Of a DNA stretch of 49,022 bases, positions 4,701-40,154 are shown in pieces (the stretch's first letter is position 1; every line of letters begins with the position of its first letter). The position numbers were made by a program, and so were the translations under genes. This DNA comes from a virus. Taxonomy: Duplodnaviria; Caudoviricetes. The notes below the pieces were generated by a model. That model was not told the origin of the DNA, did not search any database, and worked only from the letters and a program-made list of their open reading frames with translations. The stretch covers positions 1 through 49,022 of IMG/VR virus record IMGVR_UViG_3300037195_000203. One strand, written 5' to 3'.

Positions 4701-7700
4701 ACACCTACTAAACAAATACCTAAACATACAGATACACAGAAGAAACATAGAGAGCAACAGCAGATACTTCCTGATGAAGCTAGAGCTAAACTCTTTAAAG
4801 AGGCTGAGACTGTAGAAGGTTTAGTTAAACTTGTTAAGAAGTATAAGAAGACTGAAGCTGGTAATAAACGAGCAGCACAGCTTAAAGCTAAAGGTTGGAA
4901 GCAAGTTAATATTGTTCGTCAACTTAAGAAAGAAGGTTTAGTAGAACTAACTGAAACTAAAGAGTTAACGAAAGCTGGTAAGACTCGTCTAAAAGCTATC
5001 ATGAAAAAGGGTACTAAAGTATCTGAACAAGTACAACAGGAAGTACCTCGTATACAGCGTACAGAGACATCTCTACACGAAGGAACTAAGCATAGTTCTG
5101 AAGGTGTACAAGAGAAAGCTGGTGAAGGCTCTCTTGAAGAGAAAGATCTTGAGCATATACAGGAGTACGATGATACGGAAGTAGAATTATATGGTGACGC
5201 TACTGGGTTTATTAAAGACCCTGACGAGACTATGTTTAAAGATCCTAACGTAGAGATTAAGGAAGATGATGTATCTAGTGGTTTAATACCTAAATCTATG
5301 ACGGTTACTACTACAACAAATATACGTGATACTCAGAAGCTTACTGGAGAAGTACCTACTAAAGATATAGAGCATCTTAATGATCGTCTTATGTCTGACA
5401 TAGAGAAAGACTTATTAGATAAGTATGAGACTAAAGTAGATACCTATGCTGAAAATGTTGGTATGGATAAGATACGTAAAGTTTGGAAGAAAGATCCTAA
5501 GAGAACACAAGAAGTTCATCAACGTATGATCAACTCTCGTTCTATGGATACGGTTGTCGCTGTAGTTAGAGTGTCAGAGACTATCGCTAATGAAGCTAAA
5601 CAAGTATCAAGTAAGCCTGTAGTTAAATCCAAGCTACACTCTGATGATCTTAGCACCGAACAAGTTGAGATGTTAAACTCCTTGACCAAACAGGAACATG
5701 ATCAATTATTCAATGACGCTGGTTCGTTAGATATTGAACAACTACAGACGCTTATACAAAAGGCAGAACATGCAGAACGTTTACATGGGCCATTTAAAGA
5801 GCATGTAGAACCAGTAGTTAAAGAGCATATAGAGGCTGTACAAAAGGTAACTAAACGTTTACCTAAACCAGAAGATCCAGTAGTAACACCAGGAGGTAAG
5901 CCTAATACGTTAGTCGACCTTACTGTACCAGAAGGTAAATTAGCCAAACAAGCTGATCAACTCTATGAAGACATCAGTGTACTAGAGTTACATTTAGAGT
6001 ATAGAGATGATCTTGCTACTACCGCTGCACAATACGGTTGGGATGCAGATGTTTATACACAGACTGTAATAGATAGTTTAGATAGAGCGCGAGCTACATT
6101 AAAGACTATTGAAACACATCTACGCAGAGATCCTACTATACCTACTGTACATCCAGAAGCTAAGCATAAGCTCGGTACAGCCATACAAACACAACGTAAA
6201 ATTAATACACCTAAAGATAAGATAGATGTATTAGATGAAAATAATCGTTGGGTTAACAGGGCTGCACCACCAGAGACTCCTGAGACAGTTTGGGAAGAAG
6301 TGTTAAGACGTAGAGCTACAGAAGCTAGAATGAATTTTATTGGCCCACATTTAGAGCCAGTAATACCTAAAATAGCTGACACTACAGCTAGTCCTGTAGA
6401 AGTACCTGTAACCTCACCACCTCCAACAAGTAATCCGTTAGAGCGTCCTGTCACTGAGCAAGAGATAGAAAGCTTACATCACGAACCTGCATCACTTACC
6501 CCAGAACAACGGGTAGATATAGGTGTACGTGAATCAGCCGCAATGACTAAGATGAAGGAGAATTCTGTAGGTGCTATTATTAGTGCCACTACGAAATGGC
6601 TATCCTCTGGAGAATCAGCAGAACTAGCTAACGCCTTAGATCATGATGGTATGTCTGAATACATAGGCAACCTAGCTGGTAGTATTACACAAGATCTAAC
6701 TACTGTATTACAAAATGCTCCTTTAGAGACATTACGTATGTTTGGTGCATTAGTGCCAGAATCAGCAGCAGGGTTTGGTGGTAAAGTTCAACGTAAGGCT
6801 TCAGGTGCTATCATTAAAGATGCTAAGTATCGTGAGTCATTGACACAGATTATGCCTGATTACGTACAACTCATGGATGATTTCTGTAAAGAGAAGGGTT
6901 ATAACTTTGTTCGTAGAGCCTTCGCTCAACAACAAGCTGGTATGGATAATGAAGCTGTTGATATGTTCAACAAACAAGTATTCAAAATTCAAGAGTTACG
7001 TAAGCAAGGTTTAGAGCTAACACCAGATATTAGTCCTTCCGTAATAGAGTTTGTTAAACGTTGGGATAACTATACGGGTTATAGCCATAAAATTCTTGTA
7101 GAAGCTGACGCAGGTGGATTTACAGCTAAACGTAAAGTTAAGCACTACATACCTCACGTATGGAAATTAAATAACCTACATGGTGCAGTTAGTAAACATG
7201 GTGAAGACTTAGTAGAGAAAGTCTTAGCTAAAGGTTACAGAGAGTCATCTAACAGATCTACACCTTTGTCCGTAAAAGATTCAATAGCTATGGCTAAAGA
7301 GCAAATAGCTTGGATCAGGAAGCAAGAGAGTGAGCCAGATGATCAATACGCACCTCCATCAGATAGTAGAGCGAGAGAGCGTAAAGAGATTAATACTTTA
7401 GCCGAGATAGATGGTTTATCTGTATTAGATCTACTTGATACAGAAGTTGCAGGTATAGCAACTAAATATTCTCATCGAGTAGGTGGTTGGATTGGTTTGG
7501 CAGAGTCTACTAATGGTTTAATCAAAAATGATGTAGATATACAGTCATGGAGAGCAATCATACAAGCTGAAGGTCAGAGCCAGGGTTTACCAACTAAGGA
7601 GTTAGATAACTACCTTCAATGGTATGATGATACTATCGAAATGATGATGGGTAGACCAACAAGAGACGGCCTAGATGAACGCCTTAGAGATTTTAAAGAT

Positions 7701-16183: not shown

Positions 16184-16501
16184 ATGAGTACACACGTAGA
16201 ACATACAATACCAGCAACTAATGGTGTACATCTTATACCAGTTAATAGTAATGCTAATCTGTCTATTACTCCTACAGTACATAGTTCAGGTACATATACA
16301 GCGGGTACATTAGTATACAGAGCGCGAGCTTATGGTGCTACAGAGTACGAGACGTTAAGTCCTAACTCTTCATCATTAGTATCTGGTTCAAGACAAACTA
16401 TAAGTATCGTAGGTCAACCAATAAGTCATATAGAAGTAACAGTAGCCAGTTTTGCAGGTACAGCAGATACTATAGCATTCTCTGTTAACGATTGGGAGTA
16501 A
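16184..16501 (+). CDS. Hypothetical beta-rich protein, likely structural
   Basis: AAGGAG RBS; Thr/Ser-rich. Confidence 0.6.
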   Translation: MSTHVEHTIPATNGVHLIPVNSNANLSITPTVHSSGTYTAGTLVYRARAYGATEYETLSPNSSSLVSGSRQTISIVGQPISHIEVTVASFAGTADTIAFSVNDWE

Positions 16502-16503
16502 TT

Positions 16504-18246
16504 ATGGATACTGTAGCCGGTATAAGTACAGTAGCAGGTATTACTACTACACAAGGTGCAACCTCTAGGATAGTAATACCTATTGATGCTATTACATATT
16601 ATGCATGTGATAGAGCTACAGAAGCAGAGAGTACCTTAGAGCAAGTTAATAAGCTTGTCAGTGTCACAATGGGTGGTGCTGAACACGTACCATTTGAAGG
16701 TCTTTTGATAGAAGGGCCAACTACTAATATGATGCCAGTACCTACAGATATATCTGATCCCTCATGGGATTTAGCAGGAACAGGAACGGCTTCTACACCT
16801 ATAGTAACAAAAGATTACGGAGAGGTAGGAGTATCACGTATTCAGATGGACTTGAATGGCGGTACAACAAGTTCTGATATTGCTAGAGTCACAGCAAAGA
16901 ACCTACCAGCACCGACCATTGGTTTAGACTATACGTTATCTTTTGAGGCGAAACTAAACACTGGTACATCAGAAGATATTACAATATACATGGCGGGTAA
17001 TTCTGCTGGAGGCTCTGCAACAATAACCGATTCGTGGCAGAGGTTTGTTGTAACTTATGAGGCAGCTGGTGTTAGTCCTGTGTTCGGTGTAGCTTTGAGA
17101 GGTAGTTTCGCAACATCTAAAAGTATAGATATGCTTGTTAAAATGGATGATGTTACGTTTACAAAAGGTTTTCAAGTTGAAGAATCTAGTCATGCTTCTA
17201 GTTTCACAGTTGGTTCGAGGGCGAGTGCTGATACTAGAATCAGTACATATACAAGACTAGGTGCTTCTGCGTCAACACCTTTAGCTATATCAAGCGGTGG
17301 CGGGTCAGGCACGCTTGATGGATCAGGTTACGAATTCACTGCAAGCGGTGGTCGGTGCTATGCAACTGATCAAACGTCACCTATACCATTTGATTCTACT
17401 CGTAGATTTTTTAGTATTCGATTAGACACGCTTCCAGGTTCTATAGATAACTTTGCTATGGCGTTCTTTGATGATGATGATTTGGGATTGGTAACAGCAG
17501 GTTTAACACTTCAAACCGTTTGGAACGGTACAAAATTCACTGCTATAAATTTGGGGAGTTTGGGCGCGCCGGTTGATCAGGGGGAGTTAGAATTCACAGC
17601 AGGCGATGAATTAGCACTGGTGTGTGATGACACGGGGGATGTTGAGATATGGCATAAACCCGCAGCGGGGCCGATTGTTCAAGTTGGTTCTACTGTAAAT
17701 GTCACCCCAGTGCCAGCAATAGTAAGCTACGCAGCTTTAGGCCTTGGCCCTGGTTCGTGGGGCGGGGAAATACTTCAAAGCCCATCAGTGCCAACAGGCG
17801 CAACTCTGATTGAAACATCAATTGCGGAACAATGGTCGGGTGATGACTTTGAACTAAGTTTCACACATATACTCGACTATGACGTAGCTACTGCAAGCAC
17901 CAGTTCCCCATATATAACTCGAATGCCTTCTTCGGGAACAGATGATTTCACGATAGTATTATCCAAAGCGCAACCAGATAGAATAGATTGTTCATTTAAA
18001 GTGGGTGGCGTAACAAGTGCATCAACTACTTTGTATCTAACAAGTGGAAATATGGTTGTAGGTACACAGTTGGATATTACTGTCAGTCTAAAAGATGGTG
18101 ATTTTACATTAACTGTTAACGGGCAGACTGATACTGACACTACTACTGACACAGTACCTTGGCAGGCAACACAGGTGTTGGGTTCAAGTGGTGGTTCATC
18201 CGAATCATCGGGTATTTACAAACAGTATTTATTTAAATCAATTTAA
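16504..18246 (+). CDS. Second fibre/spike protein with carbohydrate-binding-like modules
   Basis: LLIEGPTTN...YTLSFEAK...WQRFVVT...FQVEESSHASSF pattern of phage spike/CBM-like domains; ATG 16504 follows GGAG. Confidence 0.6.
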   Translation: MDTVAGISTVAGITTTQGATSRIVIPIDAITYYACDRATEAESTLEQVNKLVSVTMGGAEHVPFEGLLIEGPTTNMMPVPTDISDPSWDLAGTGTASTPIVTKDYGEVGVSRIQMDLNGGTTSSDIARVTAKNLPAPTIGLDYTLSFEAKLNTGTSEDITIYMAGNSAGGSATITDSWQRFVVTYEAAGVSPVFGVALRGSFATSKSIDMLVKMDDVTFTKGFQVEESSHASSFTVGSRASADTRISTYTRLGASASTPLAISSGGGSGTLDGSGYEFTASGGRCYATDQTSPIPFDSTRRFFSIRLDTLPGSIDNFAMAFFDDDDLGLVTAGLTLQTVWNGTKFTAINLGSLGAPVDQGELEFTAGDELALVCDDTGDVEIWHKPAAGPIVQVGSTVNVTPVPAIVSYAALGLGPGSWGGEILQSPSVPTGATLIETSIAEQWSGDDFELSFTHILDYDVATASTSSPYITRMPSSGTDDFTIVLSKAQPDRIDCSFKVGGVTSASTTLYLTSGNMVVGTQLDITVSLKDGDFTLTVNGQTDTDTTTDTVPWQATQVLGSSGGSSESSGIYKQYLFKSI

Positions 18247-18290
18247 TAACCAATTTAACAAATAGCACTTGGAAACAGGTGCTTAATATT

Positions 18291-18875
18291 ATGAACATAC
18301 AAATAAACGAACAATTAATAGAACAAGAAAGAGACTTTGAGAGAGCAGTACTACCTGAACTTATTAAAGATAAAGGTATACATGTTTTAGAAGACACACA
18401 GTACAAAGAGAATATAAAAGCACATGAGTTCTATAGCTTCCCTATATGGGATAATGTAATGTGTTACTTCGAACAAGCTCCTAAGATACACCATAGGTTA
18501 ACACCTTGGAAAGAAATAGGACAAAAGTTAAATCTAAACAATAAGCAGTTAGATCAATTAAAGAAATTGTATGATTTAGCAGATTGTAAAGGTTACTTAC
18601 CACCGGATATATTTAAAGGTAAGAACAAAGTAAGAGAGATTAAGAGTTTAGTACAAAATAATATTATTTGTACACTTAATCCAGAGTTAGGTAAGCGTAG
18701 AGAAGGTTTCTTACTTAACCCATGCGTACTTTGGGCCAGAGAATGGTGGAGTCCTTGGGCACAAGGAGGTTTAGCCATGATGTGGATGAACGAGATAGAA
18801 ACAACGCTACCAGTACTACATAGGTACGGTTTTAGCTTCGATGATGGTGCAAAATATGTACATTTTAGGCAATAA
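18291..18875 (+). CDS. Hypothetical protein, possible winged-helix DNA-binding protein
   Basis: EIKSLVQNNII...FLLNPCVLW resembles the wing of RepL-like wHTH proteins (weak); last gene before the putative genome end. Confidence 0.55.
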   Translation: MNIQINEQLIEQERDFERAVLPELIKDKGIHVLEDTQYKENIKAHEFYSFPIWDNVMCYFEQAPKIHHRLTPWKEIGQKLNLNNKQLDQLKKLYDLADCKGYLPPDIFKGKNKVREIKSLVQNNIICTLNPELGKRREGFLLNPCVLWAREWWSPWAQGGLAMMWMNEIETTLPVLHRYGFSFDDGAKYVHFRQ

Positions 18876-19140
18876 AAGGGCAATAAATGAGCCGCTGTGG
18901 GGCGGCTGTAACCCACGTGGCACTAAGGCTGTAGCCATATTTACAAGTAGATACGCATATATAAGGGGCACTGCCGCTTCGCTACCCCTTAGTCATTCAT
19001 AGCATAGCTATTCATAGTTCTATACGCTCCTAGTTAATACAGTAAGTAAGCTATTAAGTAAGATACCTTATGTACTAAAAGAAGTACTACATGAAGTACC
19101 CAAATATTAAAAATGGGTGAGAAATACGGAGGGGTACTCC

Positions 19141-19335
19141 GCTCCTTCGTCGCGTCAAGTTTCCCCCATAGCCTCCAACAATAAGATAGGTGCACACAAA
19201 CTACTCCTTTGTACTGATAGTTTCTACCTTGTATAACTTATGTGCTAGTTTGGTGCTGGGTAGAGCAGCTCCTTCGTCGCTGGATATGTCTCCTTTTTGA
19301 TAGGACTCAATACATCTATTGTCTCCTTTTTGATA
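19141..19335 (+). repeat. Short direct repeats: GCTCCTTCGTCGC x2 (19141, 19268) and TGTCTCCTTTTTGATA x2 (19287, 19320)
   Basis: Exact matches read from the sequence. Confidence 0.9.
19209..19237 (+). promoter_or_regulatory. Candidate host sigma70 early promoter
   Basis: TTGTAC - 17 nt - TATAAC upstream of the first early gene. Confidence 0.45.
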
Positions 19336-19560: not shown

Positions 19561-19638
19561 TTGGGTAGCTTCGGCTACCCTATCGTAGGTGTAGCAATTG
19601 TGCTACATCTTAATTACTTACTAAAGGTATTACCTATG
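19561..19638 (+). repeat. Double-hairpin early-gene leader, copy 1
   Basis: GGGTAGC-TTCG-GCTACCC, then TGTAGCA-ATTG-TGCTACA, then RBS-TATTACCT-ATG. Confidence 0.85.
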
Positions 19639-19865: not shown

Positions 19866-19940
19866 TTGGGTAGCTTCGGCTACCCTATCGTGGGTACAGC
19901 AATCCTGCTGTAGCTTATTAACTTTGGAGTATTACCTATG
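19866..19940 (+). repeat. Double-hairpin early-gene leader, copy 2
   Basis: First 26 bp identical to copy 1; second stem TACAGCA-ATCC-TGCTGTA shows compensatory changes. Confidence 0.85.
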
Positions 19941-20851: not shown

Positions 20852-20890
20852 GTTCCAAGCTCGTAACTGGATAGCCAGCCGAGCTGGAAC
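20852..20890 (+). promoter_or_regulatory. Irregular long hairpin upstream of RNAP1 (RNase III-like site)
   Basis: GTTCC-A-AGCTCG...CGAGCT-GGAAC with inner CTGG/CCAG. Confidence 0.5.
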
Positions 20891-20941
20891 TTCAACAACA
20901 ACGAATTAAAGTACTCATTCTTTATTTACAGGATTATTATT

Positions 20942-23020
20942 ATGTCTTCATCTAACAAGCAAGTAATCGCAGCAATAGCTAACTCTATCTCAACTGGTAT
21001 TGAAGCTGAAATTAACCAACAACGTCATGATGCTAACGATCGCATTGGAGCGCGGGAAGTAGCTCGTTCGTACATCAATGACAACTTATCTTCAATGCCA
21101 GAGCTAGTAACTGGTAAATATATTGTATCTTATCTAGACAACCGTGGTGAGAAGCAGTCTAAGGTACAGTCTAAGAACTTAGCTGTATGGTGTGTTGTAC
21201 TGCAAACTACTATTGAGACTGGCCATACAACAGAGGTGTTATTAGCATCTATTCTTATGGACTGGGCAAAGGATGAGTTCAATGAAGAGTGGGACAAGAA
21301 AGATACTCAAACCCTATGTCTTAAGTTTATTGAACATATGCGTGACTTGTGGATACTATCTGATAAACGTACCACTATTCAGTACGTCGATGAAGAGGGT
21401 GAAACCCAGACGGGTAAAGTTACAAAGTTGTGCCAGTCGTTCTTAGAACTCATGATGGATATTACGAAACATCTACGTTCTAACTCTCATATGTTGTGTC
21501 GTCCTTTGGTTAACCAACCCATGGACTGGACTGATAACCTCAATGGTGTCGGTACTAACGCTGGACTTAAACTCATCAAGGGCAACCCTGCTACTGGTGA
21601 TGCTATAGCCCAACCAGTACTTGATGCTGTAAACACACTACAAGCTGTTAAGTTCATTGTAGCACCTGCTATGATTGATACAGCTTATGACCTACTGGAT
21701 AACGCTGACTATGAAACAGTTGAAGAAGAACGGATGTACACCGAGATTACCTTACCTCGATACGAGAAAGAAAGTTTCTTCTTTCCAGTTACGATGGATT
21801 CACGTGGTCGTATGTACTATCGAGGAGGACTACTTACACCTCAAGGAACTGACTTCTGTAAAGCAGCATTCCAGTTCGCAGAGTCTATGCCTCTTGGATC
21901 TACTGGTCTTGATGCGATTTGTTTGCATGTTGCTAATTGCCTTGGTCATGACAAGCTTAGTTATAATGATAGGCTCGCTTGTATTGAGCAGTACATTGAC
22001 TGTGGTGACTTTGATGCTATCAATGATCACATTGATGTCGCTACTCGCTGGCCTAAGTCGGATGTGTTTCAAGCAACTGTTGCAATATTGGAACTAAAGC
22101 GCATCCTATTGTTAATTGAAAGAGGTGATGCTGTGTGTGATATACAGTCGAACCTTGTTTGCCATCAAGATGGTACGTGTAATGGTTTACAACATATGTC
22201 TGCTATTACTCGTAACTATGAGACAGCTAAGACAGTTAACTGCACAGCTAGTACTCACGATGATGATCCTCTGGACATCTATGGTATCGTTGCTACTGAA
22301 GCTACTAAGTCTAAAGCTCTATCGCCTGAAGCTGTGAAGCTTATGATGAAGTACGGACGTTCTATGGCTAAAGATGGTGTAATGATTACTGGCTATGGTG
22401 CTGGTGAAGTTACCGTACAGAATGGGGTATACAAATTCCTCGTTTCTAAGCACGAGAATGGGGCTGTGGCCAACGAAATTGGTAAAGCCTATGTGGAAGC
22501 CATGCAGTTTAAAGCTGCCGCTGTGAAGACGCTCACGAAGGCTGTGAAGAGTCGTGTTGAATCTGCTTTAGAGTTTGGACGCGAGAAGTTCCAATGGACT
22601 ACAGCAGATGGTTTTGTGGCTACTACAGAGTACAGAGACCTAGAAGTTAACAGAGTACGTGCGGGTGTGTTCAATGCATTAGTACGTAACATGCATCCAC
22701 TACCATTAGATGAAATTAAATCAATAGGGGCAATGGCTCCTAACTTCATACACAGCATTGATGCTACACACCTACGTATGGTGGTTAATGGTTGTGGTCA
22801 CGATCTTGTAACAATACATGATTCCATTGGCTCACATGCAGCTACATACTTTGATACAGCGACAGTAATTCGTAAAGAATTCGTAGCAGTACATGAGTAT
22901 GATGCATTAGAGAACCTATGTAAAAACATGGGTGTTGGTTCAAATCAAGTACGTACTCCGAAGTTTCGTGGTACCTACGACATTAACGAGGCACTAGAGT
23001 CCTCATACATCTTTTCATAG
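20942..23020 (+). CDS. Single-subunit T7-type RNA polymerase 1 (early, compact, thumb-truncated)
   Basis: DSRGRMY; motif A HQDGTCNGLQH; motif B RSMAKDGVMITGYG; PNFIHSIDATH; motif C IHDS; C-terminal YIFS. Confidence 0.93.
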   Translation: MSSSNKQVIAAIANSISTGIEAEINQQRHDANDRIGAREVARSYINDNLSSMPELVTGKYIVSYLDNRGEKQSKVQSKNLAVWCVVLQTTIETGHTTEVLLASILMDWAKDEFNEEWDKKDTQTLCLKFIEHMRDLWILSDKRTTIQYVDEEGETQTGKVTKLCQSFLELMMDITKHLRSNSHMLCRPLVNQPMDWTDNLNGVGTNAGLKLIKGNPATGDAIAQPVLDAVNTLQAVKFIVAPAMIDTAYDLLDNADYETVEEERMYTEITLPRYEKESFFFPVTMDSRGRMYYRGGLLTPQGTDFCKAAFQFAESMPLGSTGLDAICLHVANCLGHDKLSYNDRLACIEQYIDCGDFDAINDHIDVATRWPKSDVFQATVAILELKRILLLIERGDAVCDIQSNLVCHQDGTCNGLQHMSAITRNYETAKTVNCTASTHDDDPLDIYGIVATEATKSKALSPEAVKLMMKYGRSMAKDGVMITGYGAGEVTVQNGVYKFLVSKHENGAVANEIGKAYVEAMQFKAAAVKTLTKAVKSRVESALEFGREKFQWTTADGFVATTEYRDLEVNRVRAGVFNALVRNMHPLPLDEIKSIGAMAPNFIHSIDATHLRMVVNGCGHDLVTIHDSIGSHAATYFDTATVIRKEFVAVHEYDALENLCKNMGVGSNQVRTPKFRGTYDINEALESSYIFS

Positions 23021-23721: not shown

Positions 23722-23800
23722 AAGTATTGTAAGTCTTCAGAAAGCCTCTCTACAACGGAGACCATAGCTCTAGTTGAAGGCTTACAGTACTTTTTTTTTT
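23722..23800 (+). terminator. 19-bp stem-loop followed by T10 (terminator and/or RNase III site)
   Basis: AAGTATTGTAAGTCTTCAG pairs with TTGAAGGCTTACAGTACTT using three G-U pairs; T run at 23791-23800. Confidence 0.6.
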
Positions 23801-24263: not shown

Positions 24264-24411
24264 ATTAACCAAAACAGAAAGAAAGTTAGCAAAGAAATCC
24301 CCGAAACATTTACAAGCAGCCAAAGATTATAAACAACAAATAATTAATAACGGCTACGTGAAGATTGAAGCACTAATCTCGTCTTACCTAGACAGAGGTT
24401 GTACTCCATAG
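24256..24411 (+). CDS. Small basic protein (51 aa), not in the ORF track
   Basis: Overlaps the upstream stop; MYKLTKTERKLAKKSPKHLQ... Confidence 0.5.
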   Translation: MYKLTKTERKLAKKSPKHLQAAKDYKQQIINNGYVKIEALISSYLDRGCTP

Positions 24412-24488
24412 AGAAGTAGGTTCTTCTCGTCGACGAGCTGACCCGTTAGACTAGCTCACTAACATAACGACACATACAGGAAAAATAT

Positions 24489-24947
24489 ATGTCAGAAGTA
24501 GAAGCAACACCAGCGTTCGATTTAGGCGCACTAGCAGCACTAGCAGTAGTAAACAATAACAAAGCAGGTAGCGGTGGTGTTCCATCATTCAAGCTAAGTA
24601 TTGAAGCTGCCCGTGACGCTATCGTTTGTAAGAACGGCAACCGTCGCCAAGTAGAAGGTGCTCCACAAGCACTAACATTAAGTCTTGGTCGTGTAACTCT
24701 TGATCTATCAGCAGTAGGTGTAAAGAATGCTACCCGCATTAACGTACCTGAAGCAGATGTAGAGAACTACACAGGTCAACTACTTGCAGCAGTGCAAGCA
24801 GGTATCTTTGATGATGCTATTAAAGCCGCTCAGTTCAAAGCTGACCCAGCTAACCGTAAACCTGTAGAGAAGGTTGTGGTAACGGAAGATCAACTAGATC
24901 CTCCAGCAGATGTAGACCTTGATGCTATCGACTTGGAAGAGTTGTAA
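24489..24947 (+). CDS. Hypothetical protein with acidic C-terminal tail (possible ssDNA-binding or transcription cofactor)
   Basis: Tail EDQLDPPADVDLDAIDLEEL; codon usage resembling highly expressed genes; followed by a hairpin. Confidence 0.7.
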   Translation: MSEVEATPAFDLGALAALAVVNNNKAGSGGVPSFKLSIEAARDAIVCKNGNRRQVEGAPQALTLSLGRVTLDLSAVGVKNATRINVPEADVENYTGQLLAAVQAGIFDDAIKAAQFKADPANRKPVEKVVVTEDQLDPPADVDLDAIDLEEL

Positions 24948-28761: not shown

Positions 28762-28964
28762 GTGCTTTAGATGTACAAGAAGGTGGTAATCATTATAAGA
28801 ATATGAAGATACAACCTTTAGAATATACATTAGCTAACGAATTAGGTTTCTGCGAAGGTAACATAATTAAATACGTTAGTAGACACAAATCAAAGAATGG
28901 TATAGAAGATCTAAAGAAAGCTCGTCACTACATTAACCTATTAATAGAATTAGGAAGCAAATGA
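28758..28964 (+). CDS. DUF3310 / T7 gp1.7-like nucleotide kinase family protein
   Basis: GGNHY...IQP...FCEGNIIKYVSR..KNGIEDLKKARHY. Confidence 0.85.
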   Translation: MSALDVQEGGNHYKNMKIQPLEYTLANELGFCEGNIIKYVSRHKSKNGIEDLKKARHYINLLIELGSK

Positions 28965-30607
28965 GTGAATTTAGAACACAGTTAGGTGCAGATATATTTG
29001 CACAGAAGTACGCTAATTATGAAGGTCAAACATGGTCTGAAAAAGCCACAATGTTAGCAGAAATAGCTCGACCATATACGAACTCCTGTGAGTTTATAAA
29101 CATTAGTAACGTTATACGTAAAATGCAATTCTTACCAGCCGGTAGATACATTTACTACGCAGGTAGAGAAGCAAACTTTTATAACAATTGTTTCATATTT
29201 AAAAGTCAAGAAGACACTAGAGAGGCTTGGGCTGATCTAATGTATGAAACAGTATCCGCTACTATGTGTGGTGGTGGAGTAGGTAACGACTACTCAATAT
29301 TTAGACCGAGAGGTGAGCCGTTAAGTAGAACAGGTGGTGAGGCTTCTGGCCCAGTACCTCTAATGATGATGGTTAACGATAACGGTCGCTACGTCATGCA
29401 AGGTGGTTCAAGAAGAACTGCTAACTATGCAAGCCTTAACTGGCAGCATGGTGACGTACATGAGTTCTTACATGCAAAGGATTGGGAGCATCAGTTTATT
29501 AAAGGTGCATTCAATGAAGATGGAGAACCTATGACAGTTAAAATGGCTAAGGAAGCAGACTTTAATTATAAAGCTCCTTTAGATATGACTAACATTAGTG
29601 TGAACTACGACGATCATTGGCGAGAGCTTATGTACAGAAGTGAACACCCTATATACGTAGACAATGTTAGACAAGCTTGCTTACATGGTGAGCCGGGATT
29701 TAGTTTCAACTTCGGTAAACATTCTAACGAGACAGGACGTAATGCATGTACAGAAGTTACCAGTGAAGACAATGGTGACGTATGTAACATAGGCTCTTGT
29801 AATATGGCTAACATAGACACCATAGAAGAGTTTGAGAAAGTTGTACGCTTAGGGACAATATTCCTCTGTTGTGGTCTACTAGAAGCAGACTTACCATCAG
29901 ACTTAATCAAAGAGGTTAGAGCAAAGAATAACCGTATAGGTTTAGGTTTAATGGGTGTACATGAATGGTTACTTAAACGTGGCTACAGGTACGAGTTTGT
30001 AAATGAACTACGAGAGTGGATGGAAGTATATGAAAGAGTCTCAACAGAAACAGCAACCAAGTTCTGTAATTACATGGGAATCCCTGTCCCAGTTGCAATT
30101 CGATCAATCGCTCCAACAGGCAGCATCGGACTACTTGCAGGAACTACTACGGGTATCGAACCTATATATGCAACAGCATATAAGCGAAGGTTCTTGTCAG
30201 GAGGAAGTACTTGGAACTATCAATACTGCCTTGACGCAACAGCTAAATGCATTGTCGATTCAGGGGTTGATCCAACAAGTATCGAAACAGCAAGCCAGCT
30301 TGCACTGGAACCTAGGAGAAGGATAGAATTTCAAGCCAACATGCAAGACTACGTGGATATGGCTATAAGCTCTACACTTAATCTGCCTGCATGGGGAACT
30401 GAAGGAAACAACGAAAGTACAGTACAAGAACTAGCTGATATATTATCAGAGTTCGCACCTAGACTAAGAGGCATTACATTCTACCCAGATGGTAGTAGAG
30501 GTGGTCAGCCGATCACAGAGATACCTTGGGGAGAAGCTAAATGGTTAGAAGGTGAAACATATATAGAAGGGAATGATCCCTGTAACGGAGGCTCTTGCGG
30601 CTCATGA
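28961..30607 (+). CDS. nrdJ: Ribonucleotide reductase, class II (B12-dependent), compact
   Basis: PAGR, NNCF, GEPG, NACTE, CNIGS, IGLGLMG, APTGS, GITFYPDGSR, C-terminal Cys pair; no class I YY motif and no beta-subunit gene in the genome. Confidence 0.85.
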   Translation: MSEFRTQLGADIFAQKYANYEGQTWSEKATMLAEIARPYTNSCEFINISNVIRKMQFLPAGRYIYYAGREANFYNNCFIFKSQEDTREAWADLMYETVSATMCGGGVGNDYSIFRPRGEPLSRTGGEASGPVPLMMMVNDNGRYVMQGGSRRTANYASLNWQHGDVHEFLHAKDWEHQFIKGAFNEDGEPMTVKMAKEADFNYKAPLDMTNISVNYDDHWRELMYRSEHPIYVDNVRQACLHGEPGFSFNFGKHSNETGRNACTEVTSEDNGDVCNIGSCNMANIDTIEEFEKVVRLGTIFLCCGLLEADLPSDLIKEVRAKNNRIGLGLMGVHEWLLKRGYRYEFVNELREWMEVYERVSTETATKFCNYMGIPVPVAIRSIAPTGSIGLLAGTTTGIEPIYATAYKRRFLSGGSTWNYQYCLDATAKCIVDSGVDPTSIETASQLALEPRRRIEFQANMQDYVDMAISSTLNLPAWGTEGNNESTVQELADILSEFAPRLRGITFYPDGSRGGQPITEIPWGEAKWLEGETYIEGNDPCNGGSCGS

Positions 30608-37367: not shown

Positions 37368-37737
37368 AATGAAGGTGAGCCAATTAGGTTCAGTAGTTCA
37401 GCTATTAACAAAGAAGCAGGGAGGGAAGTGCGCTGTATGTGGCTTCCCTTTCACACAGCGCGATAGACCAGTACTAGATCATGACCATGATACAGGTAGG
37501 GTACGTGGTGTACTTCATAATAGCTGCAATGGCGCAGAAGGTAGAATAAAATCAAAAGCGAAGATGGGTCATACAGGTGTTAGTGCAGCAGACTATGTGA
37601 TAGGTTTAGGTAAATACTTAGAACTACATAAGAAGCCACAAACTCGTTTGATACATCATACACATTTAACAGAAGACGAGAAGCGTTTAAAGAGAAACGC
37701 TAAAGCTCGTAAAAGGCGTAGAGCTAAGAAGGCATAA
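37357..37737 (+). CDS. Endonuclease VII family Holliday junction resolvase
   Basis: QGGKCAVC...LDHDHDTGRVRGVLHNSCNGAEG. Confidence 0.92.
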   Translation: MTNRMKVSQLGSVVQLLTKKQGGKCAVCGFPFTQRDRPVLDHDHDTGRVRGVLHNSCNGAEGRIKSKAKMGHTGVSAADYVIGLGKYLELHKKPQTRLIHHTHLTEDEKRLKRNAKARKRRRAKKA

Positions 37738-40154
37738 TGACAGTAGATGAGCAGATACAAGAGCAAATCCTATGGGAACATGAGTGCATACGCAGAGGTT
37801 CTGATAGGTACTACGCACAACAAGATAGATTAAAGTCATCTGGACAAGGTGATCAAGCAGACAATATGAGTCTATTACTCAGGGATCGTATTGAAGATGT
37901 AGCACTGGAGTTAGAGACTATACATAAGACTACAGTAGGTAAAGGTGCAGGTACGAACTGGCTACTAGACAGAGCTTTAGTAGAAGGTGACTACCATAGA
38001 TTAGCTTTCATAGGTATGAAGGTTGTCTTTCAGGTAATGCTCATGCCACGTAATAATACAGTATTAAAGATTTGTTTGGATATAGCCTCAAGGTTAGAAG
38101 CAGATGTTAAATGTATTATCTTTGAAGCTATGCACCCTAACTACTACGCAGTGGTTAATAACTCATTTAAAACCCAGAAAGTTAAGGACTATAAACATCG
38201 CCATAAGGTTATGATGTTAAAGTACAACGAGTTCGATATAGGGTGGCATGATTGGACACAAGCCAACAAAGCACATATAGGCTCTAAAGTACTGTTAGCA
38301 ATAATGAATGTATTTGACGATATTATCTATGTCCATAAACAATGGGAGCGTGGTAAAGGTACAGCAATATTAAAGACTACGGAAGAGTTTGAAGTATGGA
38401 CAGAAGAGTTTGAAAAGGTACGTTCTATAATGCATCCATTCTTACTTCCTCTGAAGATACCACCTAGAGCATGGACTCAAGGCAAAGGTGGTGGTTATTA
38501 CACGCCTCAGATGACAGCTCGCCTACCTTTCGTTAAGACAAGAGGTAAGGCACATACTGACTATGTTAAACAACATCCTATGGAACATCATACAGATGCT
38601 ATCAATAAGATGCAACGTACAGCATGGAAGGTAAATAACGAAGTACTGGAAGTACAGAAATTAGTTTATGAGAAAGGACTGAAGGTTGGTATACCTAGTT
38701 CACAAGAACTAGTAGTACCTAGTTTCCCTGAACATCTTAAAAGCATAGAGAAAGATACACTGACAGAAGCACAGAGAAAGGAAGTTAGTAATTGGAAAGC
38801 TAGAGCTAAAGCTGTACATGGTAAAGAGCAAGAACGTAAAGGACAAGTCTTAGCGTTCATGCAATCACATGCATTAGCTAAGGAACTAGAAGACTGGGAA
38901 GAGTTCTATTTCGCATACAACGCAGACTTTAGAGGTCGTATCTACTGTGCAACGTCAGGTTTAAGCCCACAAGGTGCTGATGCTGCTAAAGGCTTATTAC
39001 AATTTGCCAAAGGTGTAGAGTTAGGTGAGTCAGGAGTATATTGGTTAGCCGTACAAGGTGCTAATACATATGGTAATGACAAACTTAAGTATGACGATAG
39101 AGTTCAATGGGTTATGGATAACGAGGATTATATACATAGAGTAGTAGATGATCCAATAAGCGCCAGAGAGTTTTGGGGTAATGCAGATAAGCCTTACCAG
39201 TTCTTAGCATTCTGCTTTGAATGGGCTAGATCAGATTATGGTAGAGATCCTAAAACAAAAGGTTATTTACCTGTAGGTTTAGATGGTTCATGTAATGGAC
39301 TACAACACTTCTCGGCTATGTTACGAGATGACGTGGGAGCAAAAGCTACCAATTTATGTAATAGTGAACTACCTTCAGACATATATCAAGATGTAGCAGA
39401 TGTTTGTATGAAGAAGTTACAGGCAGAGTTTGATGACTGTGGAGATGCGCGGGCTAAGATATGGTTACGTGTAGGAGTTAATAGGAAATGTGCTAAACGT
39501 CCTGTAATGACATTACCATATGGAGCTACACAAGAGTCAGCAAGACATTACATAATGGAATATGTACAAGCTAATTGGGGTAAGTTTAATCTATCAGAGA
39601 AACATCAATGGGAGTTCGCAGTCTACTTAACGCCTATCTTATGGGAGTCCATAGGAGAAGTAGTAGTAGCGGCTAGGGCAGCAATGTCATGGTTGAAGAA
39701 GTGCGTAGGCCCAGAATATTCTCATTGGGTAACACCATTAGGTTTCCCAGTATACCAGTACTACAAGAAAGTAGAGTCAATACTCATTGCTACTATGTTA
39801 AACGGTTCACTAAGTCTATCACTTAAAGACGTAGAACAACCAGGACTACCTAATAGTTACGCACAGAAGAATGGTGTATCACCAAACTTTGTACATAGCA
39901 TAGATAGTACACACATGGTAATGACTATTAATGATACAGACTTTCATAGTTATGCAATGATACATGATGACTTTGGTACACATGCTGGTAGAACAGAAGA
40001 GTTATTCACCTCTATTAGAAAAACATTCAAAGAACTATATACAAAGTATGACCCATTACAAGAATGGGCAGAACAAGTAGGTAAAGAGTGTCCACTAATA
40101 AAAGGTGTTTACGATATTAACGATATTACAGATGCCGCCTACTTCTTCGGGTAG
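37737..40154 (+). CDS. Single-subunit T7-type RNA polymerase 2 (late; phiKMV-like position)
   Basis: GGGYY, DFRGRIY, LDGSCNGLQHF, RKCAKRPVMTLPYG, PNFVHSIDSTH, IHDDFG, C-terminal YFFG. Confidence 0.96.
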   Translation: MTVDEQIQEQILWEHECIRRGSDRYYAQQDRLKSSGQGDQADNMSLLLRDRIEDVALELETIHKTTVGKGAGTNWLLDRALVEGDYHRLAFIGMKVVFQVMLMPRNNTVLKICLDIASRLEADVKCIIFEAMHPNYYAVVNNSFKTQKVKDYKHRHKVMMLKYNEFDIGWHDWTQANKAHIGSKVLLAIMNVFDDIIYVHKQWERGKGTAILKTTEEFEVWTEEFEKVRSIMHPFLLPLKIPPRAWTQGKGGGYYTPQMTARLPFVKTRGKAHTDYVKQHPMEHHTDAINKMQRTAWKVNNEVLEVQKLVYEKGLKVGIPSSQELVVPSFPEHLKSIEKDTLTEAQRKEVSNWKARAKAVHGKEQERKGQVLAFMQSHALAKELEDWEEFYFAYNADFRGRIYCATSGLSPQGADAAKGLLQFAKGVELGESGVYWLAVQGANTYGNDKLKYDDRVQWVMDNEDYIHRVVDDPISAREFWGNADKPYQFLAFCFEWARSDYGRDPKTKGYLPVGLDGSCNGLQHFSAMLRDDVGAKATNLCNSELPSDIYQDVADVCMKKLQAEFDDCGDARAKIWLRVGVNRKCAKRPVMTLPYGATQESARHYIMEYVQANWGKFNLSEKHQWEFAVYLTPILWESIGEVVVAARAAMSWLKKCVGPEYSHWVTPLGFPVYQYYKKVESILIATMLNGSLSLSLKDVEQPGLPNSYAQKNGVSPNFVHSIDSTHMVMTINDTDFHSYAMIHDDFGTHAGRTEELFTSIRKTFKELYTKYDPLQEWAEQVGKECPLIKGVYDINDITDAAYFFG

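Follow-up and report, generated by a model that had tools for sequence, protein, structure and literature searches.

A minimal single-chain T7-type RNA polymerase with a truncated thumb in a two-polymerase, T7-like phage genome

Thumb and subdomain H are taken to keep T7 RNA polymerase (RNAP) on its template. According to PMC11617373, the T7 thumb comprises residues 330–410, basic thumb residues stabilise the elongation complex, and the loop of the intercalating hairpin covers residues 232–242. Phage N4 RNAPII, as described in PMC4496689, is a heterodimer of 673 aa whose thumb and N-terminal domain (NTD) are both truncated; it transcribes the middle genes and is recruited by, and needs, gp2. 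Short-thumb RNAPs also occur close to the left end of the genome in Foturvirus and Tawavirus, phages that carry two polymerases. Annotation of the pair exists in GenBank, where the early enzymes of the Alteromonas phages vB_AspP-H4/4 and vB_AmeP-R8W are called merely "putative RNA polymerase". In the literature searched, which did not extend to subscription papers or the H4/4 announcement, no description of the anatomy of the short enzyme and no test of it was found, and no paper matched two RNA polymerases in Autographiviridae phages; the one match for two RNA polymerases in an Alteromonas phage concerned an N4-like phage. The main text of the R8W paper contains no mention of "RNA polymerase", and the short enzyme is not taken up in the passages of the PhPV1.2 paper. 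Neither the minimal anatomy nor the extent of the short-thumb clade appears to have been described.

The whole stretch of DNA analysed here (49,022 nt, hereafter the window) represents the full genome of a marine, T7-like phage, assembled as a circle with ends that overlap by 77 nt. Only two of its ORFs matched PF00940, and they were designated RNAP1 and RNAP2 (Table 1); the two are just 29% identical over the core. From the position of the terminal-repeat motif, compared with its positions in T7 and H4/4, the left genome end was placed near 19140, so that RNAP1 starts about 1.8 kb inside it. The gene order runs from RNAP1 at this end through primase, helicase, DNA polymerase, exonuclease and ligase to RNAP2 and then the structural genes; the primase is of the DnaG type and, like the helicase, is the window's own. 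A giant virion RNAP is absent, with only two RNA_pol ORFs in the window and a 2378-aa ORF that matches internal virion proteins.

Table 1. Features of the window discussed in the text
Feature	Position	Strand	Basis or remark
TTCCCCCATAG, terminal-repeat motif	19161..19171	+	in T7 at position 24, in H4/4 at position 20
Two copies of the clade left-end motif, consensus ATATGTCTCTTTTG	19284..19333	+	motif search
Stable RNA hairpin just upstream of RNAP1	20852..20892	+	z -4.8, 0/200 shuffles
RNAP1, 692-aa single-chain T7-type RNA polymerase	20942..23020	+	PF00940, E 6e-51
Predicted beta-hairpin 59–77, R68 in 97% of homologues	21116..21172	+	model and conservation
Five-residue link 114–118; about 50 aa missing at T7 subdomain H	21281..21295	+	models and landmarks
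Predicted long beta-hairpin 139–163, aligned to T7 intercalating-hairpin region	21356..21430	+	model and profile alignment
Thumb-spanning segment L233–R290	21638..21811	+	sequence landmarks and model
Catalytic core: D410 (motif A), R473/K477/Y485 (motif B), H626-D627 (motif C)	22169..22822	+	alignment, n = 111
Specificity loop 564–590	22631..22711	+	conservation across homologues
152-aa protein, acidic C-terminal tail, candidate cofactor	24489..24947	+	conserved gene in the RNAP1-to-primase interval
RNAP2, 805 aa, full thumb and subdomain H	37737..40154	+	immediately upstream of structural genes

Several other features of the genome were recorded. A ribonucleotide reductase large chain is encoded at 28961–30607 with no small-chain gene recognised alongside it; H4/4 and R8W have both. 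The interval separating the terminase module from the right end (16492–18875) contains ORFs of 584 and 198 aa of no known family, the latter with homologues in loci L007 and L008. Identical hairpins, GGGTAGC-TTCG-GCTACCC, occur in the early region at 19563–19580 and 19868–19885 inside a 59-nt direct repeat, and this pair was absent from the 33 other loci compared. Neither the window nor any of 8 loci yielded a tRNA or tmRNA call with ARAGORN. Intergenic stretches at ~7365–7470 of L166 (H4/4) and ~4770–4830 of G004 (rotated) end in a short frame resembling a tmRNA tag peptide, and ARAGORN called no tmRNA there.

The thumb-spanning segment was measured between the counterpart of T7 A323 and the DxxGR Asp, using translations from the T7 and N4 records for those two phages. 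In RNAP1, LQAVKF starts at residue 233 and DSRGR at 286, giving 53 aa from start to start, while MQRTAW (292) and DFRGR (397) delimit 105 aa in RNAP2; these re-measured counts are those of the preliminary description. The same landmarks gave 98 aa for T7 and 69 aa for N4 gp15 (RNAPII), and the loss in RNAP1 amounts to 52 aa against RNAP2 and 45 aa against T7. Given the residue range of the T7 thumb, the 53-aa segment is the thumb, in agreement with the earlier assignment. A segment of 50–69 aa (median 53) was present in 111/111 aligned full-length RNAP1 homologues, and the short thumb is therefore not a product of chance or sequencing error. Ordinary RNAPs had segments of 90–109 aa (n = 57, from 77 rows after setting aside 17 RNAP1-type sequences, N4 and 2 fragments without the anchor). 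Among the 50%-identity representatives from a profile search (148 of 150 matches listed, 15 without DxRGR dropped), 133 were measurable: 53 fell at 40–74 aa, two of them N-truncated, and 80 at 90–156 aa, with none at 75–89 aa.

The AlphaFold2 model of RNAP1, built on the 111-row alignment (pLDDT 94.5), has a thumb helix at 242–253, a six-residue loop and short helices at 260–269 and 273–276, and the RNAP2 model has a 41-residue thumb helix (344–384) after a 30-residue loop. The thumb helix of RNAP1 is at most 17 residues long in this confident model, so the structural comparison gave no normal-length thumb and sided with the truncation claimed earlier. Profile alignment to T7-type enzymes resolved the thumb losses into three blocks in the region of T7 346–404. 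What is left is acidic, with 4 K+R and 11 D+E in residues 233–285 and family medians of 4 K+R and 9 D+E (median net charge -5), compared with K+R/D+E counts of 16/15 in the RNAP2 family, 18/12 in T7 and 12/10 in N4.

The NTD of RNAP1 is 59 aa shorter than that of RNAP2 (233 vs 292 aa). A shorter NTD had been noted previously (692 vs 805 aa overall) with no location given, and about 49 of the 59 missing residues could now be placed in one block. Measured between the promoter-binding helix and a conserved Trp (T7 W204), this block has 38 aa in RNAP1 (34–51 in its family), 87 in RNAP2 (86–92 in its family) and 94 in T7. Going by the T7 domain boundaries, we take the missing block to be subdomain H. 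Helices 134–146 and 152–165 of the RNAP2 model lie at this position and have no counterpart in the RNAP1 model. The hhalign register of the NTD (RNAP1 74–135 against T7 153–224) was set aside in favour of the helix order in both models and the conserved Trp; the choice of register decides which helices were lost, and the size of the loss is independent of it. Both the subdomain H expected of a factor-independent T7/T3/SP6-type RNAP (38 vs 94 aa) and the full-length basic thumb of such an enzyme (53 vs 98 aa; 4 vs 18 K+R) are absent from RNAP1. The predicted hairpin 59–77 lies roughly where T7 has its AT-rich recognition loop and may have a corresponding role. Judging from the model, this hairpin, the retained long hairpin and the conserved specificity loop are unlike the needs of a bare ssDNA-dependent enzyme.

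The catalytic residues listed in Table 1 and the DxxGR residues D286/R288/G289/R290 were invariant in 111/111 homologues (38–61% identity); by this alignment the active site is intact, and RNA synthesis is predicted. The specificity loop is likewise conserved at Y564 (100%), E568 (99%), R573 (100%), G575 (97%) and D590 (98%), and its W-to-P landmark distance is 48 in RNAP1, 52 in RNAP2, 53 in T7 and 45 in N4, which bears out the difference of about 4 aa from RNAP2 noted before. R571 and R573 align to T7 R746 and N748, which are promoter-reading residues. The RNAP1 model aligned to T7 RNAP (8dh5_M) with a VIA Z score of 40.9 and an rmsd of 3.4 over 614 residues, and a T7-like right-hand fold with NTD and specificity loop is predicted. 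It aligned better to T7 elongation complexes (625–643 residues) than to the promoter complex 1cez (501). The idea that RNAP1 is locked in the elongation conformation was rejected, since the RNAP2 control behaved alike (758–765 vs 588), indicating prediction bias and making the fit of the RNAP1 model uninformative.

By analogy with N4, RNAP1 may be a single-chain counterpart of N4 RNAPII, responsible for the early-to-middle genes as far as RNAP2 and likely assisted by a cofactor, a reading to which we give about an even chance. Its slot appears analogous to that of N4 RNAPII, being the first in the genome and followed by replication genes with a second polymerase at their end. RNAP1 would be the phage's first own polymerase, reading a short promoter through the conserved specificity loop and opening the DNA with the retained hairpin. 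It would then transcribe the 12–17 kb replication block ending in RNAP2, as N4 RNAPII does the N4 middle genes, and in doing so would pull DNA into the cell as well. Lacking both the basic tip of the thumb and subdomain H, it would hold the RNA:DNA hybrid weakly, so that a helper would probably be needed. RNAP2 would afterwards serve the late genes and packaging.

The short-thumb enzymes form a lineage of their own. In a tree built from 386 core columns with thumb and NTD excluded (26 of 56 alignment rows used), the 8 short-thumb sequences of the 26 grouped in a single clade (UFBoot 100), distinct from that of RNAP2 (100), these supports being split values that re-rooted trees displace along the rooting path. 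Given these separate clades, RNAP1 did not arise by recent truncation of an RNAP2 copy. N4 RNAPII joined the short-thumb clade at UFBoot 91, below 95, on a very long branch, and this grouping may be an artefact. The clade includes enzymes of 643–649 aa that likewise lie between terminase and primase. The smallest short-thumb RNAPs have 542–555 aa, one of them on a 45.8-kb contig; proteins P0276, P0284, P0288 and P0291 are T7-type RNAPs of this size with motifs A, B and C present and a thumb segment of 48–50 aa. Two RNAP matches were found in 26/26 of the best 26 phage records and two RNAPs in 4/5 IMG/VR records (3/3 of the complete ones; the fifth record is 82% complete). RNAP1 has all the traits of the Foturvirus/Tawavirus clade of early short RNAPs, namely thumb, position, full-size partner and core phylogeny.

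One record seemed to point to a decaying or dispensable duplicate whose polymerase activity is not needed, as the last third of RNAP1 is missing from that of the cultured Tawavirus-like phage PhPV1.2 (L180, PQ511476). However, this record has inverted and duplicated blocks and a split DNA polymerase and is likely misassembled, and the missing third is inconclusive because the record is scrambled and duplicated. The invariance of the catalytic residues across 111 homologues at only 38–61% identity and the age of the clade, separate from that of RNAP2, also speak against decay, which we regard as very improbable.

The upstream region was analysed for host and phage promoters. Between the terminal repeat and RNAP1 in 17 loci (L102 left out as a contig-edge match), sigma-70 sites matching at least 10/12 positions numbered 0 against 5.6 expected, and those at 9/12 numbered 13 against 31.5; the T7 control gave 2 against 0.08 at 10/12 and, for its three A promoters, 3 against 0.5. 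This shortage leaves the first transcription of the RNAP1 gene unexplained and keeps alive an alternative in which RNAP1 is a left-end starter and genome-entry motor that initiates at tandem ATATGTCTCTTTTG sites, possibly from a few virion-carried copies. Host sigma-70 promoters would then be unneeded early. The 14-bp motif was found in 31 copies in 18/34 loci, 1–3 per locus, just inside the terminal repeat; on both strands of 11 genomes it occurred at the left end only in 8 and was absent in 3 (Tawavirus). Set in the T7 promoter register, it carries T at -8, C at -7 and C at -5 as T7 phiOL does, followed by a T-run from -4 to -1 (T at -3 to -1 in 30/30), and G at +1 in 21/31 copies. The invariant specificity loop also suggests one shared promoter.

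Other observations weigh against this alternative, which we consider unlikely. The first copy of the motif lies at the position of T7 ATCTGTT (T7 161 after the 160-bp repeat; H4/4 217–218 after the 217-bp repeat), matches it at 5/7 positions and has a T-run behind it, as in a class II packaging pause. In T7, ATCTGTT is the concatemer-junction pause, a class II pause used in packaging; no paper on ATCTGTT at the concatemer junction was found in the literature searched. Moreover, the window's own copies have T at +1, and TATAAT-like words are depleted in coding DNA anyway. By its sequence, the motif could be a pause signal for packaging or else a promoter in the T7 register, and a possible role in genome entry takes a lead from the tandem, promoter-shaped copies at the left end.

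No repeated consensus promoters for RNAP1 or RNAP2 were found along the genome, and three motif searches returned no middle-region consensus. Discovery within and across genomes yielded only ribosome-binding sites, terminal elements and one right-end promoter-like site. This phiOR-like site, at 18950–18969 in the window and at the right ends of R8W, H4/4, G002, G003 and G004, is single, lies ~150–300 bp before the terminal repeat and ends in TATA-rich bases and GGG. It is preceded in relatives by a conserved ATAAATCAATGACTT, which resembles an IHF site; in G003 a second copy lies upstream of the primase. A conserved non-coding block, GTGACT.ATAACAC...ATGCG...GTGAG, possibly a structured RNA, stands upstream of the DNA polymerase in R8W, H4/4, G002 and G004 and was not seen in the corresponding gap of the window.

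Terminator-like sites were present between RNAP1 and primase in 9/22 loci (69 kb), five of them 33–83 nt past the RNAP1 stop, compared with 2 in 122 kb of the middle region (10 genomes); two of the nine positive loci are close relatives, and the T7 locus compared was too short to serve as a control. The window and 12 more of the 22 loci had no strict terminator in this interval, and a hairpin with T-run near 23790 of the window was not significant (z -1.5). The stable hairpin just upstream of RNAP1 is likely a processing site.

These sites bear on the proposal that RNAP1 is a low-processivity primer maker at the replication origin, with host RNAP reading the early and middle genes in the phiKMV-type fashion. 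The precedent is T7, whose own RNAP primes replication from promoters lying directly behind gene 1; the loss of both hybrid-holding elements predicts short products, and no distributed promoters were found. On the other hand, the genome has a DnaG-type primase and a helicase, and terminators after RNAP1 together with the lack of strong host promoters leave the middle block without an obvious route for host RNAP. Considering the window's own primase and helicase and the terminators before the replication genes in several relatives, a primer-only role is the weakest of the options raised in the preliminary description and appears decidedly improbable.

For the preferred N4 RNAPII-like reading, an accessory factor was sought. 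A tblastn comparison of N4 gp1 and gp2 with the window and 16 loci revealed no homologue, the one match being at E 0.02 inside another R8W gene; a structural analogue of gp2 may nevertheless be encoded. The 152-aa protein encoded between RNAP1 and primase has homologues in 20 RNAP1-bearing genomes or loci, Vibrio phages included, and its matches among 50,697 phage records were restricted to the RNAP1 phage group (3 and 24 records). Its gene was not found in G005 or L125, in both of which the RNAP1-to-primase span was covered. Comparison of the family with N4 gp2 by hhalign gave a probability of 0.1%, and the ESM Atlas returned only unnamed clusters <0.9. The 152-aa protein is the best candidate for an RNAP1 accessory factor, as weakly suggested by co-occurrence within one lineage. 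Conserved, paired small inverted repeats (TGAGG..CCTCA followed by GAGC..GCTCAC) stand ahead of the gene at ~24405–24465 of the window and in R8W, H4/4, G002 and G004; the window pair folds no better than shuffles (z -0.3).

The retained promoter-opening elements fit autonomy and count against the cofactor reading. RNAP1 could accordingly be imagined as an autonomous, processive T7-like enzyme in which two hairpins stand in for the lost thumb tip and subdomain H, so that a cofactor would not be required. Hairpins 139–163 and 59–77 are confidently modelled, with R68 97% conserved, and the lack of a detected gp2 homologue and of the 152-aa gene in two lineages would agree with this. Nevertheless, the thumb remnant is net acidic family-wide (median -5), and factors are required by N4 RNAPII, the closest small enzyme that has been characterised, as well as by most T7-like RNAPs. 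Autonomy is therefore rather improbable in our judgement.

A widespread natural single-chain enzyme with half a thumb, no subdomain H and a retained active site offers a test of the minimal needs of processive elongation, and it provides a hypothesis for the presence of two polymerases in a group of cultured marine Alteromonas and Vibrio phages. With 540–690 aa, such enzymes save between one fifth and two fifths of the size of T7 RNAP and would make compact expression tools if processive; cultured hosts and phages exist (H4/4, R8W). In its boldest form, the proposal would be that RNAP1 represents an overlooked class of minimal single-chain RNAPs (down to ~545 aa) that elongate without a thumb clamp or subdomain H and start infection alone from tandem ATATGTCTCTTTTG sites. 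Possibly delivered with the virion, they would replace sigma-70 promoters and pull the genome in, giving an N4-like cascade in a T7-like phage. We regard this combination as speculative and doubtful.

Among the known systems, T7 RNAP shares with RNAP1 the fold, motifs A/B/C, DxxGR, a hairpin at the intercalating position and an early gene position. RNAP1 differs from it in having 45 aa less in the thumb, which is acidic, ~56 aa less at subdomain H and 5 aa less in the specificity loop, and in being accompanied by a second RNAP of the same genome. N4 RNAPII (gp15/gp16) resembles RNAP1 in its minimal size (673 vs 692 aa), the truncation of both thumb and NTD, the shortness of the specificity loop (45 vs 48) and its place as a second polymerase in a cascade, which upholds the preliminary description of RNAP1 as a minimal, N4 RNAPII-like enzyme of one chain. 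N4 gp16 aligned to the RNAP1 model with a Z score of 21.6 and an rmsd of 3.3 over 319 residues (6dt7, among the best 50 VIA rows with one chain per entry); gp15 (6dt7 chain A) lay outside those 50 rows, so the thumb comparison is one of sequence only. However, RNAP1 has a shorter thumb (53 vs 69 aa) and a longer NTD (232 vs 166 aa), and N4 RNAPII is a heterodimer split after the DxxGR region, whereas RNAP1 is one 692-aa ORF with 111 full-length single-chain homologues. N4 RNAPII also needs gp2 and follows a virion RNAP, in contrast to RNAP1, with which no gp2 homologue was detected.

The Tawavirus-type Vibrio phages and their kin are closer. JSF7, phiV141 and K385 carry a short RNAP of 673–698 aa with 32% identity and a 66-aa thumb, and they have a second, full-size RNAP like the window, a layout shared by the K series of Vibrio phages; the specificity loop of JSF7 differs from that of RNAP1, and the exact left-end motif is absent from these phages, unlike the window. 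In the Foturvirus phages H4/4 (gp3) and R8W (gp05), the early RNAP is 41% identical to RNAP1 over the full length with a thumb segment of 65 aa against 53 aa, and both phages have in common with the window the two-RNAP layout, the position of RNAP1, the left-end motif and the 152-aa neighbour.
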